DNA of 39,718 bases, taken from Escherichia phage ElsieAttenhofer_Bas105. The translations under genes and the position numbers were made by a program. The stretch is from the sequence record PQ850601.1; one strand, 5' to 3'. Shown in pieces: positions 3,462 through 11,465 of this stretch. Under the pieces are notes generated by a model that was not told where the DNA came from, searched no databases, and was given only the letters and a program-made list of their open reading frames with translations. Every line of letters begins with the position of its first letter. Position 1 is the stretch's first letter.

Positions 3462-3484
3462 ACTTAACTATCACTATAGGGAAG
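3462..3484 (+). promoter_or_regulatory. Phage RNAP promoter (phiOR-like, near right genome end)
   Basis: TTAACTATCACTATAGGGAAG matches the 12-copy promoter consensus; predicted +1 G at 3479. Confidence 0.7.
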
Positions 3485-6276: not shown

Positions 6277-6299
6277 ACTTAACTATCACTATAGGACTC
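6277..6299 (+). promoter_or_regulatory. Phage RNAP promoter upstream of gene 1
   Basis: TTAACTATCACTATAGGACTC; predicted +1 at 6294. Confidence 0.65.
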
Positions 6300-6368: not shown

Positions 6369-9050
6369 ATGAGCGTCATCTCTATTGACAAACACGACTT
6401 CTCTGATGTGTCAAACGCCATTGAGCCGTTTAACCTGCTGGCCGACCACTACGGGCAAGACCTTGCAGTCAAACAGCTTCAGCTTGAGCATGAGGCATAC
6501 ACTGAAGGCGAGCGACGTTTCATCAAGAACCTTGAGCGCCAGACCGAGCGCGGGGAACTGGCAGACAATCAGGTCGCCAAGCCTTTGATGCAGACTCTGG
6601 TTCCTAAGATTGCGCAAGCCGTCAAGGAGTGGCACGAAGGTCCAGACGGGAAGCTGTCAACCTCTCGTCCTAGCGTAGCGTTCACCATGTTGAGTACTGA
6701 AGAGAAGGCCGTCAAGGATCGCTCTCTGCGTATCTCTTGCGAGTCTGCTGCGGTCATCATACTGAAGGTCATCCTCTCCAAGCTGGTCAAGCCTGAAGGG
6801 ATACCGATTACACCGATGGCCTCCGCGATAGGTCGCACACTTGAGGATGAAATCCGATTCGGTCGCATTCGTGACAAGGAGAAGGATCACTTCAAGAAGG
6901 CGATAGCAGATAACCTGAACAAGAGAGCCGGGGCATCATACAAGAAAGCCTACATGCAAGCGGTTGAGACCTCCATGTTGGAGCAAGGTCAACTGGAAGA
7001 TGCGTGGGGGACTTGGAGTCCGACCGAGGCTGTCCACGTTGGAATCAAGATGCTTGAGATTGTCATCCAGTCTACACAACTGGTCGAGCTTAAGCGTTAC
7101 GGTGCTGGCAATGCAGCGGCTGACGTTGAGATGGTCCACCTGTCAGACTTCTGGGTCAAGAAGATGGCACAACGCGGCTTCAGCCTTGCGGGTATCGCTC
7201 CAGTCTACCAACCTTGCGTCGTTCCGCCTAAGCCGTGGACTGGTGTCGTAGGCGGTGGGTACTGGGCCAAAGGTCGCAGACCACTCCCACTGATTCGCTT
7301 AGGGTCTAAGTCAGCGGTGGCACGTTACGAAGACGTGTACATGCCTGAAGTCTATGACGCTGTGAATATCATCCAGAATACGCCTTGGAAAGTTAACAAG
7401 AAGGTTCTGGAAGTGGTGAACATGGTCGAGAAGCTGAACAACACGCCTATTGATGACATACCTCAGATGGAACCGCTGAAGCCTGAGGACTATGCGGGTG
7501 AGACTGAAGAGGAACTCAAGGCATGGAAGAAGGCTGCTGCTGGTATCTACCGCCGAGAGAAGGCCAGGCAGTCACGTAGATTGTCACTGAGCTTTATCGT
7601 TAACCAAGCGAACAAGTTCTCTCAGTTCAAGGCCATCTGGTTCCCGTACAACATGGACTGGCGCGGTCGCGTCTACGCTGTGCCGATGTTCAACCCTCAG
7701 GGTAATGACATGCAAAAGGGTCTCCTGACTCTGGCAGTAGGTAAGCCTATTGGTGCTGATGGTTTCAAATGGCTGAAGGTCCACGGTGCAAACTGTGCGG
7801 GTATTGATAAAGTAACCTTCGAGGAGCGCATCAAGTGGGTGGAAGATAACCACGACAACATCATGGCTACCGCTAAGGCACCGATGGACAGCATTGAGTG
7901 GTGGGGCAAGTTAGACTCTCCGTTCTGCTTCCTAGCGTTCTGCTTCGAGTATGCTGGCGTAATGCATCACGGATTGTCTTACTCCTGCTCGCTGCCGATA
8001 GCATTCGATGGGTCCTGCTCTGGGATTCAGCACTTTAGCGCGATGCTTCGTGATCACATCGGTGGACATGCAGTAAACCTGACGCCTTCCGGTAAGGTAC
8101 AAGACATCTACCGCATCGTGTCTGACCGCATTGAGGAAGAGCTTAAAGTCCTGCTGGTTAACGGCACGGACAACGAGATGGTAACTCACGAGGACAAGAA
8201 AACTGGTGAGATTACCGAGCGTCTCAAACTGGGGACACGAGAACTGGCCCGTCAGTGGCTGACTTACGGTATGTCACGTAAGGTCACTAAGCGTTCAGTC
8301 ATGACTCTGGCCTACGGGTCGAAAGAGTACGGCTTCGCAGACCAAGTATACGAGGACATCGTGATGCCTGCGATTGACTCAGGGTCTGGCGCTATGTTCA
8401 CCGAACCAAGCCAAGCGTCCCGCTTCATGGCTAAGATGATTTGGGAAGCTGTGAGCGTGACCGTAGTTGCTGCGGTTGACGCGATGAAGTGGCTTCAAGG
8501 TGCTGCCAAGCTGCTGGCTGCTGAAGTGAAAGACAAGAAGACTGGAGAAATCCTGAAGCCTTGCCTTCCAGTACACTGGGTAACACCTGATGGGTTCCCG
8601 GTCTGGCAGGAATACCGCAAGAAGGATACCACTCGTCTGAACCTGATGTTCTTAGGGTCATTCAACCTTCAGCCTACCGTCAACAAAGGCACTAAGAAAG
8701 AGCTGGATAAGCACAAGCAGGAGTCAGGCATTAGCCCGAACTTCGTCCACTCACAAGATGGTAGCCACCTCCGCAAGACTGTAGTCCACACTCACCGCAA
8801 GTATGGCGTAATGTCATTCGCAGTGATTCACGATAGCTTCGGGACCATCCCGGCTGACGCTGAGTATCTGTTCCGTGGTGTCCGTGAGACGATGGTCGAG
8901 ACCTACCGCGACAACGATGTGCTGCTGGACTTCTACGAGCAGTTTGAATACCAGCTTCATGAGAGCCAGCGCGATAAGTTGCCAGAGCTTCCGAAGAAAG
9001 GTAAACTGAATATCGAAGACATCTTGTCTTCAGACTTTGCATTCGCTTAA
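6369..9050 (+). CDS. Single-subunit DNA-directed RNA polymerase (T7 gene 1 homolog)
   Basis: 893-aa ORF colinear with remembered T7 RNAP (FNPQGNDMxKGLLTLA, motif C VIHDSFGT, C-terminal SDFAFA); specificity-loop region reads GSFNLQPTVNKGTKKELDKHKQ. Confidence 0.97.
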   Translation: MSVISIDKHDFSDVSNAIEPFNLLADHYGQDLAVKQLQLEHEAYTEGERRFIKNLERQTERGELADNQVAKPLMQTLVPKIAQAVKEWHEGPDGKLSTSRPSVAFTMLSTEEKAVKDRSLRISCESAAVIILKVILSKLVKPEGIPITPMASAIGRTLEDEIRFGRIRDKEKDHFKKAIADNLNKRAGASYKKAYMQAVETSMLEQGQLEDAWGTWSPTEAVHVGIKMLEIVIQSTQLVELKRYGAGNAAADVEMVHLSDFWVKKMAQRGFSLAGIAPVYQPCVVPPKPWTGVVGGGYWAKGRRPLPLIRLGSKSAVARYEDVYMPEVYDAVNIIQNTPWKVNKKVLEVVNMVEKLNNTPIDDIPQMEPLKPEDYAGETEEELKAWKKAAAGIYRREKARQSRRLSLSFIVNQANKFSQFKAIWFPYNMDWRGRVYAVPMFNPQGNDMQKGLLTLAVGKPIGADGFKWLKVHGANCAGIDKVTFEERIKWVEDNHDNIMATAKAPMDSIEWWGKLDSPFCFLAFCFEYAGVMHHGLSYSCSLPIAFDGSCSGIQHFSAMLRDHIGGHAVNLTPSGKVQDIYRIVSDRIEEELKVLLVNGTDNEMVTHEDKKTGEITERLKLGTRELARQWLTYGMSRKVTKRSVMTLAYGSKEYGFADQVYEDIVMPAIDSGSGAMFTEPSQASRFMAKMIWEAVSVTVVAAVDAMKWLQGAAKLLAAEVKDKKTGEILKPCLPVHWVTPDGFPVWQEYRKKDTTRLNLMFLGSFNLQPTVNKGTKKELDKHKQESGISPNFVHSQDGSHLRKTVVHTHRKYGVMSFAVIHDSFGTIPADAEYLFRGVRETMVETYRDNDVLLDFYEQFEYQLHESQRDKLPELPKKGKLNIEDILSSDFAFA

Positions 9051-9062
9051 CAGGAGATAGTT

Positions 9063-9278
9063 ATGAAATTTGCACACAAGCAGACAGGCGTTAAGGGTGG
9101 GACTCAAATCGTGACCGTAACAGAACACAACGGCAAGGGTCTGGTGAAGACCACTATCATCCCAACTGAGATGTCCAAGCAGCTTAACATCCCGTTCAAG
9201 ACTCTTGTATATCTGGTCGAGTCCAGCCACGAGAAGTACCTGAAGGACGCAGTGTCCAAGCTGGAGCAGACAAAATGA
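9063..9278 (+). CDS. Hypothetical protein (71 aa)
   Basis: ORF with RBS AGGAGA upstream, directly after gene 1; no recognised motif. Confidence 0.45.
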   Translation: MKFAHKQTGVKGGTQIVTVTEHNGKGLVKTTIIPTEMSKQLNIPFKTLVYLVESSHEKYLKDAVSKLEQTK

Positions 9279-9356
9279 CAGACCTACAGTTACTGGCCCT
9301 GTGGCTTGGAGCACTCGCAATATTCACTTTAATCCAACGCAGAAGAGGTTAACCAT

Positions 9357-9827
9357 ATGTTCGGTAAGTCAAAACTTAAAGCACAAATCAAAGAGTTGAG
9401 CATGAAGGTGGCATACTTGGAGCGAGCCTTAACGGTACGGGATAAGGACAACGAGAGACTGAAGGTTAAACTTGCTGAATCAGAGCGTAAGCGCCTAACG
9501 CCTCCACCGGCTGTAACTGTCAAGCGTATGGTAGGCATCAAGTTCAAGGCACTGTTCAACGGTATGTACCAACCGACTGAGTTCAAGACCGGGCCGGGTA
9601 GCTGTGGGAAGAACGTTAAGCACTTCACCGTATCGAAGACTGAACGTACCATTACCATCCACCAGCACCACGTAGACGGGTCTCAGAAAGACTTTGAGTA
9701 CAGACTGAGCGCCATAGACGGACGCATCCAGTATGACTACGAGCGGGTTAAGGTCTACGGAGAAGAGGCCGAACGTGAGCGATATATTCAGGCATTCATG
9801 CGGGTAAGGCCGCGCATCATCTTCTAA
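9357..9827 (+). CDS. Hypothetical protein (156 aa) with N-terminal coiled-coil
   Basis: ORF between gene 1 and the phi1.1-like promoter; N-terminal heptad-rich charged segment; function unknown. Confidence 0.5.
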   Translation: MFGKSKLKAQIKELSMKVAYLERALTVRDKDNERLKVKLAESERKRLTPPPAVTVKRMVGIKFKALFNGMYQPTEFKTGPGSCGKNVKHFTVSKTERTITIHQHHVDGSQKDFEYRLSAIDGRIQYDYERVKVYGEEAERERYIQAFMRVRPRIIF

Positions 9828-9845
9828 ACTATCACTATAGGATTA
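9823..9845 (+). promoter_or_regulatory. Phage RNAP promoter (phi1.1-like)
   Basis: CTAAACTATCACTATAGGATT; predicted +1 at 9840. Confidence 0.7.
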
Positions 9846-9896
9846 GACTCAAGGTCATGACTCAAAGTCGTGGCCTTCATGATTAACCCTAACTCA
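9843..9896 (+). promoter_or_regulatory. RNase III-type processing stem-loop (R1.1-like), copy 2
   Basis: Stem AGGTCATGAC (9852-9861) / GTCGTGGCCT (9867-9876), loop TCAAA, two G-U pairs; conserved flanks as in copy 1. Confidence 0.5.
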
Positions 9897-9915
9897 TTCA
9901 ATCAGGAGCTACACC

Positions 9916-10095
9916 ATGTATCAGAACACTATCAACTTCGAGCGCATCAGTGAACGTCAGCAGACTGAAGGTTACATTCCTAAGGGCCGCAAGCTGAACA
10001 AGACCAAGCGTGGCGGTGGTGTCAAAGGCGCTTTCCGTAATGCTGAAGGTAAAGACTCTATGGTCAACCAAGAGAAATACTTCGTAGGAGTGTAA
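9916..10095 (+). CDS. Small basic protein (T7 gene 1.1 homolog)
   Basis: 59-aa ORF not in the supplied track; motif KGRKLNKTKR matches remembered T7 gp1.1; RBS AGGAGC upstream. Confidence 0.6.
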   Translation: MYQNTINFERISERQQTEGYIPKGRKLNKTKRGGGVKGAFRNAEGKDSMVNQEKYFVGV

Positions 10096-10098
10096 GTC

Positions 10099-10350
10099 AT
10101 GAGTAAACGATGGTTATTCGACGCATCCCCTAGCCAGTGGTCAGTGTTAGGCCGAACTCACCGCGAGATGAGTGAGGCAGGACTTGATGTCCTAATGGAT
10201 GACTCGCCGTGCTCCGGAAAAACTCTGGTCAGAGTAATTGAAGCAGACGGTGGGAGGCTTCTGGTCTCAAGAGAATTTACCGAAGATGAAATCTTTAGCT
10301 GTGAGCAATGGTGCTTACAACAATTGAACGCTTATAGGAGCTGGAAATAA
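10099..10350 (+). CDS. Gene 1.2-like protein (dGTPase inhibitor family, by position and C-terminal similarity)
   Basis: 83 aa versus 85 aa in T7; C-terminus EQWCLQQLNAYRSWK resembles remembered T7 gp1.2 TDWLNHMYDQLKDWK. Confidence 0.55.
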   Translation: MSKRWLFDASPSQWSVLGRTHREMSEAGLDVLMDDSPCSGKTLVRVIEADGGRLLVSREFTEDEIFSCEQWCLQQLNAYRSWK

Positions 10351-11465
10351 TGACAACTATTAAAACTAACCCGCACCGCGCTGTAGATTACTCTGAGTCT
10401 GGCATTAAGAAAGCACTGGCTGCTGCCGGGTCTCTCGAAGCTGAAGTGAAGTATGATGGTGTCCGGTTGAACCTCCCAGTCTTCCCGACAGGCGAGACCC
10501 AGTGGTTGAGCCGAGAGTCCAAGCCTCTTCCAGCCCTTGAATGGCTATCGGTCCTGACCAGCCTCGATAATATCGTGGAAGACCAGCAGCGCGCTAGCGA
10601 CTGGCGGTGGTTCCTGAAGCAAGCTGGCTATGAGGGGACTGGCCTGATGATTGATGGTGAGGTCATGGTGAAAGGGGTAGACTTCAACACGTCTTCGGGC
10701 CTCATTCGCACGAAGTATGTCAAGTCTAAAAACTGCGCCCTCCACGATGGTGATTGGGACCTCAAGTCCAAGACTACTCAGTTCCGGCTGGACCGAGACC
10801 GTATCAAGGTGGTAGTCTATGGCATCATCGACCTTAACGTCATCCTCGACCCGAAAGCCGAAGGTCCTATCCATAGCGTCACACGCCTGAAGGCCGAAGC
10901 TATCGTCCCTCTACTCCAGAAATACTTCCCGGAAATCGACTGGGTTCTGTCTGAGTCACACACGGTCTATGACCTTGAGTCGCTCAACTCCCTGTACGAA
11001 GAGAAGCGTCTGGAAGGACACGAGGGTCTGGTAGTCAAGGACCCACTTGGCAAATACAAGCGCGGAAAGAAGTCAGGCATGTGGAAAATGAAGCCTGAGG
11101 ATACCATTGATGGTATTGTGGTCGGACTGAATTGGGGGAATGAAGGTCTCGCAAACGAAGGTAAAGTGATTGGGTTCGACGTACTGCTTGAGAACGGTAT
11201 GGTAGTTGCTGCTAACAATATCTCTCAGGCTCTGATGGATGAGTTCACAGAAGCGGTTAAAGCTGAACGCGCCTATATTTGGAATGACTGCATGACTGAT
11301 ATTGAGCGGGAAGAATGTGGTGAGGAATGTCTTGAGGATGTGAACCCCTACAAAGGACATCAATGCGAAGTCTCCTACATGGAGATGACTCCGGATGGTT
11401 CCTTACGTCACCCTAGCTTCAAGTGCTGGCGCGGGACGGAAGATAACCCGACCATTAAGAGCTAA
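10350..11465 (+). CDS. ATP-dependent DNA ligase (T7 gene 1.3 homolog)
   Basis: 371 aa; adenylation motif KYDGVR; extended similarity to remembered T7 ligase (EGHEGLVVKDP, KRGKKSGMWKMKPE, DGSLRHPSF). Confidence 0.93.
   Translation: MTTIKTNPHRAVDYSESGIKKALAAAGSLEAEVKYDGVRLNLPVFPTGETQWLSRESKPLPALEWLSVLTSLDNIVEDQQRASDWRWFLKQAGYEGTGLMIDGEVMVKGVDFNTSSGLIRTKYVKSKNCALHDGDWDLKSKTTQFRLDRDRIKVVVYGIIDLNVILDPKAEGPIHSVTRLKAEAIVPLLQKYFPEIDWVLSESHTVYDLESLNSLYEEKRLEGHEGLVVKDPLGKYKRGKKSGMWKMKPEDTIDGIVVGLNWGNEGLANEGKVIGFDVLLENGMVVAANNISQALMDEFTEAVKAERAYIWNDCMTDIEREECGEECLEDVNPYKGHQCEVSYMEMTPDGSLRHPSFKCWRGTEDNPTIKS

Follow-up and report, generated by a model that had tools for sequence, protein, structure and literature searches.

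Three consecutive open reading frames (ORFs), designated ORF-A, ORF-B and ORF-C, follow the RNA polymerase gene (gene 1) of Escherichia phage ElsieAttenhofer_Bas105 (record PQ850601.1), whose whole stretch of 39,718 nucleotides (nt) was analyzed and is called the window here. The smallest of them, ORF-B, encodes a predicted membrane peptide of 25 amino acids (aa) and proves to be the best conserved of the three genes. The window, at 39.7 kb, is a T7-type phage genome of the genus Kayfunavirus (K1F/EcoDS1 group). Its first 24 kb are 92–95% identical to Escherichia phage P762, Kayfunavirus BDX03P1 and Salmonella phage ST59, and the region of the three ORFs shares 94.5% identity with Klebsiella phage SEA1f and 93% with EcoDS1. 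A preliminary description, made from the sequence alone, had placed two unknown genes of 71 and 156 aa at this position, together with a possible 25-aa hydrophobic peptide, and all three reading frames are present on the + strand as described. The genes and their Shine-Dalgarno (SD) sequences are as follows.

9063–9278, + strand: ORF-A, 71 aa
9275–9352, + strand: ORF-B, 25 aa, MTDLQLLALWLGALAIFTLIQRRRG
9357–9827, + strand: ORF-C (gp1.05), 156 aa
9052–9056, + strand: SD of ORF-A, AGGAG, 6 nt 5′ of the ATG and 1 nt past the gene 1 stop
9263–9266, + strand: SD-like GGAG of ORF-B, 8 nt 5′ of the ATG, within the 3′ end of ORF-A
9345–9349, + strand: SD of gp1.05, GAGGT, within the Arg-Arg-Gly codons of ORF-B, 7 nt 5′ of the gp1.05 ATG

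ORF-A starts 12 nt past the gene 1 stop, its TGA and the ATG of ORF-B overlap as ATGA, and 4 nt separate the ORF-B stop from the ORF-C start; this tight packing fits, and suggests, coupled translation. The comparison set consisted of 34 related loci (32 distinct phages) from GenBank and IMG/VR. An SD-like motif of 4–7 nt stands 5–9 nt 5′ of ORF-A in 34/34 loci, and GGAG or GAGG is found 6–10 nt 5′ of the ORF-B start in 32/34, despite the varying C-terminal peptide of ORF-A that is encoded there. All 25 loci that have gp1.05 carry GAGG(T) 7–9 nt 5′ of it, and the ORF-B stop lies 4 or 5 nt from the gp1.05 start among the related loci that bear both.

On the evidence of these alignments, ORF-A, ORF-B and ORF-C are genuine protein-coding genes under purifying selection. 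ORF-A is intact in 34/34 loci, with a ratio of nonsynonymous to synonymous polymorphism (pN/pS) of 0.29 and a mean aa identity of 78%. ORF-B, equally intact in 34/34, has the lowest ratio (0.25) and the highest identity (86%). gp1.05 is intact in 22/34 loci, with a pN/pS of 0.41 over its whole length; residues 55 to the end (the beta domain onward) give 0.28 and 77% identity, and residues 1–54 (coiled coil and linker) give 0.64 and 43%, the former of these two figures being partly due to the alignment of non-homologous coiled coils. The homology search that the preliminary description had proposed as a check disclosed no homology to characterised core proteins, and the coding signal is clear.

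For the 25-aa frame, which had been called only a possible peptide, purifying selection is specific to the frame. The other two sense frames have pN/pS values of 1.1–1.2. The distinct single-nucleotide variants of ORF-B comprise 29 synonymous and 24 nonsynonymous changes, where 26% synonymous were expected (binomial p = 7e-6), and the other frames of the region show no synonymous excess (p = 0.73). Replacements in the core exchange one hydrophobic residue for another, and the frame is 25 codons long in all 34 loci, with a GTG start in one of them (L029). ORF-B is thus a real, conserved gene, and it also crosses genus boundaries, as is seen from the following loci.

L043, uncultured 39.9-kb phage with at most 69% nt identity to any isolate: ORF-B is MSATLCLIIWLSWMGIYILTQHRRG
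L069: ORF-B is MSDSLWLVIWLALLAVYIIRQRRRG, with ORF-A upstream and gp1.05 downstream
L070: ORF-B is MTYLTMFALWMGALAAFTLLQTRRG, preceded by the polymerase stop codon and its own GGAG, without ORF-A, and followed by gp1.05 after 7 nt
Citrobacter phage CR8 (Caroctavirus): ORF-B is MTYLQLFALWMGALAVFTLIQQRRG, with an unrelated 45-aa gene upstream and a promoter downstream, without gp1.05

In L043, a remote ORF-A homologue overlaps the 5′ end of ORF-B by 22 nt, and a coiled-coil gp1.05 with its own SD lies 38 nt downstream. The L043 peptide has the same 25-aa length and is identical to that of the window at 10/25 positions, keeping W10, Q21 and RRG, the last encoded by CGC CGG GGA vs AGA AGA GGT in the window. 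Elsewhere ORF-B is accompanied by ORF-A only (K1F type, 9 loci), by gp1.05 only (L070) or by an unrelated upstream gene (CR8). Since ORF-B recurs with differing neighbours in Kayfunavirus, L043, L070 and CR8, it is the constant element and its neighbours the exchangeable ones. Of 2.9 million viral contigs, only 21, all of 39–40 kb, were retrieved by a degenerate DNA pattern for the peptide. An identical ORF-B sequence is borne by phages whose recorded hosts are E. coli, Klebsiella, Cronobacter and Salmonella, and the host-specific accessory function that the preliminary description had expected at this position is not supported. The gene is annotated in only one of the 16 GenBank records inspected (IMM-002, as 'DUF2842'), and 4/5 of its variants, the commonest included, are absent from 15 billion predicted proteins. 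In vB_EcoP-101120B1-2, a wrong-frame ORF is annotated over it.

The conservation of this stretch could also be explained if ORF-B were untranslated and retained for its DNA or RNA, be it as an origin, RNase III site or upstream promoter element, or as the region in which ribosomes bind for gp1.05. Its 3′ third (CAACGCAGAAGAGGTTAA), which includes the gp1.05 SD, hardly varies within Kayfunavirus, and the synonymous polymorphism (pS) of ORF-B is low, at 0.32 vs 0.48–0.59 in its neighbours. Origins moreover lie just after gene 1 in T3, according to its record, and in T7, as is well established. However, a noncoding element would not be expected to show selection confined to one frame, a start codon changed from ATG to GTG in L029, or an SD kept across different ORF-A C-termini. 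L043 keeps the length, W10, Q21 and RRG by means of other codons, at a distance of 38 nt from a gp1.05 whose SD is separate, and the ORF is kept where gp1.05 is absent. The RNA of the stretch folds no better than shuffled sequences (z = +1.12), on which ground an RNA structure or RNase III site under ORF-B was rejected, and it has no Rfam match. We therefore regard an untranslated ORF-B as highly improbable.

The sequence of the peptide points to the membrane. Residues 4–20 have a mean Kyte-Doolittle hydropathy of 2.25 (17 residues) and are followed by QRRRG. The charges are asymmetric, with Asp at position 3 and RRR at 22–24, and the hydrophobic character is kept in all variants. ORF-B is predicted to be a single-pass inner-membrane helix (residues 4–20) with a basic C-terminal tail. 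By the positive-inside rule, the QRRRG that follows the hydrophobic stretch would make the tail cytoplasmic, and the topology is probably N-out/C-in. The peptide has the sequence characteristics of single-pass inner-membrane microproteins, a functional class and not a homology family, with insertion being predicted. AcrZ, MgrB, KdpF, the type I toxins TisB, DinQ and ShoB, and phage exclusion proteins are small single-pass membrane proteins; ORF-B has in common with them a length of ~25–30 residues, one hydrophobic helix and a charged end, a resemblance of design only. It differs from this group in having no antisense RNA or toxin-antitoxin context and in lying in what is predicted to be the early operon of a lytic phage. 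No homology to any characterised small membrane protein was found, and a Pfam scan of the 25 aa returned no family at E-values (E) up to 1, so that the label DUF2842, present in the IMM-002 record alone, is without support.

The 156-aa ORF-C had been counted among the unknown genes. That holds as regards function, for it as for the other two, but the protein has a family: residues 58–128 match positions 2–73 of the 73-position Pfam model PF25755 (Phage_T3_1_05) with 86.3 bits against a gathering cut-off of 27 (E 1.4e-24). By this profile match, ORF-C belongs to the T3 gene 1.05 family (Pfam PF25755; phrog_8103/6379/6440/9238), and it is already named gp1.05 in EcoDS1. An AlphaFold2 (AF2) model, with a predicted local distance difference test score (pLDDT) of 88, displays a helix of 46 residues that is joined by a Pro-rich linker to six antiparallel strands, with a short helix at the C-terminus; these elements are distributed as follows.

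9357–9497, + strand: N-terminal coiled-coil segment, residues 1–47 (AF2 helix 2–47, pLDDT 94–96)
Residues 48–52: Pro-rich linker, following the coiled coil
9513–9755, + strand: beta domain, residues 53–133 (PF25755 covers 58–128)
9759–9827, + strand: C-terminal helix, basic tail and stop (AF2 helix residues 135–149)

The N-terminal coiled coil that the preliminary description had noticed is borne out by the modelled helix at residues 2–47 (pLDDT ~94) and by a 3–4 hydrophobic heptad register. This N-terminus is mosaic and hypervariable, with at least six unrelated sequence types among the relatives. Compared by sequence with solved structures, gp1.05 gave only weak coiled-coil matches (GCN4, Lpp, ZapB), and searches of PADLOC, NCBIfam and PDB sequences yielded only coiled-coil noise. 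The strands of the beta domain are modelled at 53–67, 70–77, 86–94, 98–105, 110–116 and 120–133 (pLDDT ~90). G79, G81, C83, G84, V87, Q103, K111, F113, Y115 and G122 do not vary across 59 sequences, distant members among them, and the same columns are invariant among 29 non-Kayfunavirus representatives. ORF-C keeps the family pattern, namely the G-x-G-x-C-G loop, Q-x-H-x-D-G, K-x-F-x-Y and G-R, and the invariant residues sit in hairpin loops of the AF2 model. A Foldseek search against the PDB gave nothing significant (best E 0.06, TM-score <=0.4), and the modelled beta domain is without solved structural analogue. Two catalytic assignments were considered and rejected. The loop resembles a P-loop/Walker A motif, reading GPGPCGKT in relatives, but in several members its Lys is replaced by L, H or R and the next residue by N, V or E, and in the model it joins two strands of an all-beta domain of ~80 residues, unlike a P-loop NTPase. 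A Cys-His-Asp triad fails in that the His position is H, C or T.

The gp1.05 family is small, and all the genomic contexts inspected are contigs of T7-like phages. When 1.84 billion cluster representatives were searched exhaustively, only 45 gp1.05 clusters were returned, two of them repeat artefacts, and a profile search with distant members found 19 proteins. Among 56 diverse family proteins, the domain stands bare in 19 (T3 type) and behind a coiled coil in ~20, and 16–17 (phiSG-JL2 type) start with a transmembrane (TM) helix ending in K/R, followed by a coiled coil and then the domain. In Studiervirinae, the gene stands directly after the RNA polymerase gene, as in T3, phiSG-JL2, IME305, pEp_SNUABM_10, Cornix, L043–L045, L070 and L071, and in the Erwinia, Klebsiella and Pectobacterium relatives; in the window, two small genes separate it from the polymerase gene. 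Two Melnykvirinae, Yersinia phage ISAO8 (L039 923–1189) and Pectobacterium phage PP2 (L040 962–1195), encode a bare domain of 77–88 aa that is surrounded by small hypothetical genes and lies ~3 kb from the left end of the genome, with no RNA polymerase gene annotated within the ~2 kb stretches inspected. In the literature searched for gene 1.05, gp1.05 or PF25755, the name occurs in annotation tables only, with no function described, and the K1F FtsZ paper names no K1F gene. The protein is labelled 'microtubule-binding protein' in the yong1, TM1 and SAKp10309 records.

T3 gp1.05 consists of the 90-aa domain alone, with its own phage promoter phi1.05 and the primary origin at its 5′ end. The protein of the window adds the 47-residue coiled coil and the C-terminal helix, lacks a promoter of its own, and is preceded by two genes that T3 is without. 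The phiSG-JL2-type proteins (e.g. P0259, P0286, P0298) have the same order of modules as ORF-B and ORF-C read together; however, they are one polypeptide, whereas the window has two genes in different frames, each with its own SD, and ORF-B, unlike the fused TM helix, also occurs without gp1.05. This likeness raises the possibility that programmed frameshifting joins ORF-B and gp1.05 into one TM-anchored protein like phiSG-JL2 gp1.05. The joined product would have the TM, coiled-coil and domain architecture of the 16–17 family members, and the two ORFs are only 4–5 nt apart. But the two are separated by 4 nt in most loci and by 5 nt in the MFNR type, against 7 nt in L070 and 38 nt in L043, so that the relation of the frames varies, which makes such a fusion very unlikely. 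Moreover, gp1.05 has its own SD and ATG everywhere, the ORF-B stop is conserved, ORF-B exists without gp1.05, and the region has no stable RNA fold, although no search was made for a slippery sequence or a stimulatory structure. Taken together, a fused product is barely conceivable.

The three genes also differ in how firmly they are held. ORF-B DNA was found in 218 phage records by blastn, ORF-A in 219 by tblastn, and gp1.05 at >=80% coverage in 87; the homologues collected numbered 154 for ORF-A, all on 39–40 kb phage contigs or fragments, and 230 for ORF-C. Judged from the sequences, ORF-A and ORF-B are core to the genus Kayfunavirus, ORF-A being found in every Kayfunavirus locus examined, and gp1.05 is a dispensable, fast-diversifying cassette. 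It is absent from 9/34 loci (K1F type, K1F included), where the promoter follows 3–4 nt past the ORF-B stop, and it is split or frameshifted in 3/34 (Peacock, and SH3, which was sampled twice). The earlier characterization of genes at this place as variable and non-essential thus applies to gp1.05, but not to ORF-A and ORF-B, which are intact in every locus and under purifying selection. As a slot, the region does vary as had been supposed: gp1.05 comes and goes, an extra 76-aa ORF is present in the EcoDS1 type, and in CR8 the unrelated 45-aa gene takes the place of ORF-A. Phages without gp1.05 have either the 71-aa or the 66-aa type of ORF-A, which suggests repeated loss, gain or recombination.

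The edges of the cassette are exact, since phages with and without gp1.05 share ...GGTTAACC on the left and TAAACTATCACTATAGG on the right (9825–9829 vs the L004, L018, L020 and similar junctions). The stop codon of gp1.05 consequently doubles as the first promoter bases, its TAA (9825–9827) being also the first bases of the phi1.1 promoter. The 76-aa ORF (MSMKLVAHNKAFNDGSGRCHVEL...) lies between gene 1 and ORF-A (EcoDS1 L001 1567–1797; L042 48–278), so that the site right after the polymerase gene accepts extra cassettes. Broken copies of gp1.05 are read as two ORFs, divided between coiled coil and domain in Peacock (L006 1159–1620) and SH3 (L008 958–1431), and between TM plus coiled coil and domain in pEp_SNUABM_10 (L037 795–1375). 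They could be natural fissions, pseudogenes or sequencing frameshifts.

ORF-A is a basic, soluble protein (isoelectric point (pI) 9.65). Its AF2 model (pLDDT 93) shows a three-stranded antiparallel meander (residues 3–34) with helices 35–41 and 45–70 packed on it, and ORF-A is, as modelled, a small alpha/beta sandwich. Residues 1–66 match positions 1–66 of the 66-position profile phrog_8082, its full length (E 3.4e-42), a family without an assigned function, and there was no match in Pfam, NCBIfam, PADLOC or PDB sequences. The remote homologue in L043 was recognized by hhalign with 87% probability (E 3.7e-6, 27% identity). A relationship of ORF-A to gp1.05 was rejected at an hhalign probability of 0.2%, and the name 'gp1.1', which ORF-A bears in EcoDS1 and Dev2 ('1.05' in CR44b), is not supported by a Pfam scan. 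The best structural match is LptE/RlpB, at the level of the fold only and at identities of <=10%. ORF-A is less than half its size (71 aa vs a five-element alpha/beta fold of ~130–170 residues). It is no such lipoprotein, as its N-terminus MKFAHKQTGVKGG is not hydrophobic and is without a lipobox Cys; lacking both signal peptide and lipobox, ORF-A would stay in the cytoplasm. IclR effector domains, type III secretion chaperones and longin domains, among others, score nearly as well as LptE, which indicates that the fold is generic.

The basic character of ORF-A and of gp1.05 (pI 9.96, 33 K+R in 156 residues) led us to consider that ORF-A and/or the beta domain of gp1.05 bind DNA or RNA near a replication origin or on early transcripts, acting for instance in replication initiation, transcript protection or host shut-off and not on membrane targets. 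Non-significant Foldseek matches include Sso7d and ribosomal-subunit chains, weak profile matches include OB-fold chains, and the records of T3 and phiSG-JL2 place the primary origin at the 5′ end of gene 1.05. On the other hand, no structural match reached significance, profile searches of the Pfam and NCBIfam type found no known binding motif, and the overlap with the origin is a matter of the DNA and not of the protein. About a third of the gp1.05 family is membrane-anchored, which is unusual for DNA- or RNA-binding factors. We consider a nucleic-acid role distinctly unlikely.

The surroundings of the three genes place them in the transcription unit of the polymerase gene, as listed below.

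6369–9050: gene 1, RNA polymerase, 893 aa (stop codon 9048–9050)
9825–9847, + strand: phi1.1-like phage RNA polymerase promoter, TAAACTATCACTATAGGATTAGA, with the 14-mer core CTATCACTATAGGA at 9829–9842
9916–10095: gene 1.1 (Pfam Phage_1_1)
10099–10350: gene 1.2 equivalent (phrog_6515)
10350–11465: ligase gene, 3′ of the gene 1.2 equivalent

The promoter core occurs in the window in 11 copies with <=1 mismatch, all on the + strand. At this threshold there is no copy in 9051–9828, the neighbouring ones being at 6283 and 9829, which confirms the position of the genes between gene 1 and the promoter given in the preliminary description. The 23-nt extent and the start site of the promoter are set by analogy with T7, and EcoDS1, CR44b and CR8 have a promoter annotated at the corresponding site. 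A scan of the region for sigma-70 promoters and terminators gave nothing above chance level, and an Rfam search of 8500–10500 gave no match. As the stretch from the gene 1 stop to 9828 contains neither a phage promoter nor a terminator-like site nor structured RNA, the three genes would ride on the gene 1 transcript. By the T7 transcription map, ORF-A, ORF-B and gp1.05 are probably early genes co-transcribed with gene 1, in a unit that the phi1.1-like promoter would end. In T7, the class I genes 0.3–1.3 encode small, mostly non-essential host-takeover proteins and are transcribed with or next to gene 1. The genes of the window resemble them in size and in position on the promoter map; T7 itself is without counterparts of ORF-A, ORF-B and gp1.05, none of which matches a T7 protein family in Pfam or phrog.

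A perfect copy of the core is located at 6283–6296, ~70 nt 5′ of the start of the polymerase gene (6369), and another copy at 3468–3481. From the copy at 6283, the polymerase could transcribe its own gene plus ORF-A, ORF-B and gp1.05; in T7, the first phage promoter sits, as we take it, after gene 1. Directly 3′ of the phi1.1 promoter, at 9851–9877, a possible 12-bp transcript hairpin (AAGGUCAUGACUCAAAGUCGUGGCCUU) is found in a 70-nt stretch with a folding energy of -16.9 kcal/mol (z = -2.5 vs shuffles) and no Rfam match, at the position of the R1.1 RNase III site annotated in T3 and phiSG-JL2. The antisense ORFs at 9030–9320 and 9329–9658 were dismissed as mechanical ORFs on a strand that T7-type phages do not transcribe, and foreign origin was rejected on composition (GC content 0.46–0.50 in the three-gene region vs 0.50 in the genome). 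Further downstream, the gene 1.2 slot is occupied by two unrelated alleles among close relatives. The allele of the window (10099–10350) encodes an 83-aa protein beginning MSKRWLFDAS..., which belongs to phrog_6515 'dGTPase inhibitor' and has no Pfam match, and the other encodes an 87-aa protein (MGRLYSGNLNAF...; L002 2604–2867, L004 2072–2335, L005 1884–2147). LET1 and SAKp10309 carry further variants. In GenBank, some T7-type polymerases are labelled 'N4-like RNA polymerase', and Kayfunavirus genomes are deposited as Enterococcus phages EFA-1 and IME_EF3 and Staphylococcus phage MBBL139, which are unlikely hosts.

How might the three products work together? We propose that ORF-A, ORF-B and gp1.05 form a host-takeover module close to the membrane, in which ORF-B may be a detached anchor, a proposal for and against which we find the balance to be even. 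The module would act early at the cytoplasmic face of the host inner membrane, in host takeover or counter-defence. ORF-B would insert as a single-pass helix, with its N-terminus outside and its RRRG tail inside, and gp1.05 would be kept at or near the membrane, probably as a dimer through its coiled coil (a putative oligomeric state), with the beta domain binding a target. In other phages, attachment would be achieved by the TM helix fused to gp1.05 and perhaps by an amphipathic N-terminus; Kayfunavirus may rely for it on ORF-B as a separate peptide. ORF-B must in addition have a separate function, given that it is retained in loci lacking gp1.05 or ORF-A.

This proposal is based, besides the hydropathy of ORF-B and the TM-type family members, on a complementary distribution. 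ORF-B lies directly 5′ of a coiled-coil-type gp1.05 in Kayfunavirus, L043, L069 and L070, and no ORF-B-like micro-ORF precedes the gene in the TM-type loci examined (phiSG-JL2, L044, pEp_SNUABM_10). Several gp1.05 members without TM helix or ORF-B have an amphipathic start (MFNFIKNIFS, MINIKTFFKNIFKL), with hydrophobic moments (muH) of 0.45–0.75 vs ~0.3 for the Kayfunavirus type. From the distribution of ORF-B, TM-type and amphipathic starts, we infer that the usual place of action of the gp1.05 domain is the cytoplasmic face of the inner membrane.

A number of observations weigh against the anchored module. ORF-B is unchanged in phages without gp1.05, so anchoring of gp1.05 cannot be its sole role and is perhaps not the main one. 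The sequence type of ORF-B and the N-terminal type of gp1.05 do not strictly co-vary, and any association between the types could be simple linkage. Because 19/56 family members consist of the bare domain and lack any obvious membrane signal, and Cornix has a coiled-coil gp1.05 without ORF-B and without an amphipathic start, the domain does not always need the membrane. Few independent lineages underlie the complementary pattern of ORF-B and TM helices, homology of ORF-B to the fused TM helices is not demonstrable, and no fold, PADLOC, NCBIfam or PDB match points to a target of the beta domain. The basic nature of ORF-A (pI 9.7) and gp1.05 (pI 10.0) fits nucleic-acid binding equally well.

Another account would make ORF-B a small membrane effector that acts alone, without physical link to its neighbours, its adjacency to gp1.05 reflecting gene packing. 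It might then act in superinfection exclusion, in the modulation of a host inner-membrane protein, or in the control of membrane potential or lysis timing. The constancy of ORF-B while its neighbours are swapped is what such an effector would predict, its SD is its own in 32/34 loci and also in L070, and its size and design are like those of known small single-pass regulators of bacteria and phages and of type I toxins. Left unexplained are its constant place a few nt 5′ of a coiled-coil-type gp1.05 wherever gp1.05 is present and its absence from the three TM-type loci examined, and it has no homology to characterised small membrane proteins. We find this account doubtful. It is unlikely, in our judgment, that ORF-B is instead a free-standing membrane-docking microprotein, shared by at least two T7-type genera, that recruits swappable effectors (gp1.05, ORF-A, the CR8 gene).

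The variability of gp1.05 admits another interpretation, in which gp1.05, and perhaps ORF-A, belong to a counter-defence cassette whose variable coiled coil tracks a variable host immune component. Membrane association would then be incidental or mirror a membrane-bound defence system, and to this extent the idea overlaps with the anchored module. gp1.05 is polymorphic for presence and absence and joins at least six unrelated N-terminal types to a conserved domain, and the slot after gene 1 is an insertion hot spot for early accessory genes. The early genes of T7-type phages are generally known to include anti-restriction and host-inhibitor proteins, such as those of T7 genes 0.3, 0.4, 0.7, 1.2 and 2. 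However, no similarity to a known anti-defence protein was found (PADLOC, which covers defence proteins only, gave nothing), the literature searched gives no function for gp1.05, and its N-terminal pN/pS of 0.64 is inflated partly by the alignment of non-homologous coiled coils. ORF-A and ORF-B are conserved and not diversifying. Such a cassette therefore seems to us an improbable explanation.

To conclude, ORF-A, ORF-B and gp1.05 are conserved hypothetical early genes of a known genus, with gp1.05 in a named, uncharacterised family. Two points are new. ORF-B is a real gene under purifying selection that occurs in more than one genus and is almost never annotated, and the gp1.05 family has a modular anatomy (bare, coiled-coil and TM-anchored), which gives rise to the hypothesis of membrane tethering. 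The current understanding of T7-type phages is not overturned by these findings, which would not surprise a T7 specialist. Nevertheless, a strongly conserved gene is missing from nearly all Kayfunavirus annotations, and, as K1F-type phages are used for therapy and engineering, the gene map after gene 1 should include ORF-B. Since the annotation of the T3 sequence (record X05031), the gp1.05 family has stood unexplained beside the RNA polymerase gene. If ORF-B does serve as a docking peptide, Kayfunavirus would achieve with a two-chain system what other phages achieve with a single TM-anchored gp1.05, and the beta domain of gp1.05 would be a fold not recognised before, directed at a conserved component on the inner side of the host membrane.

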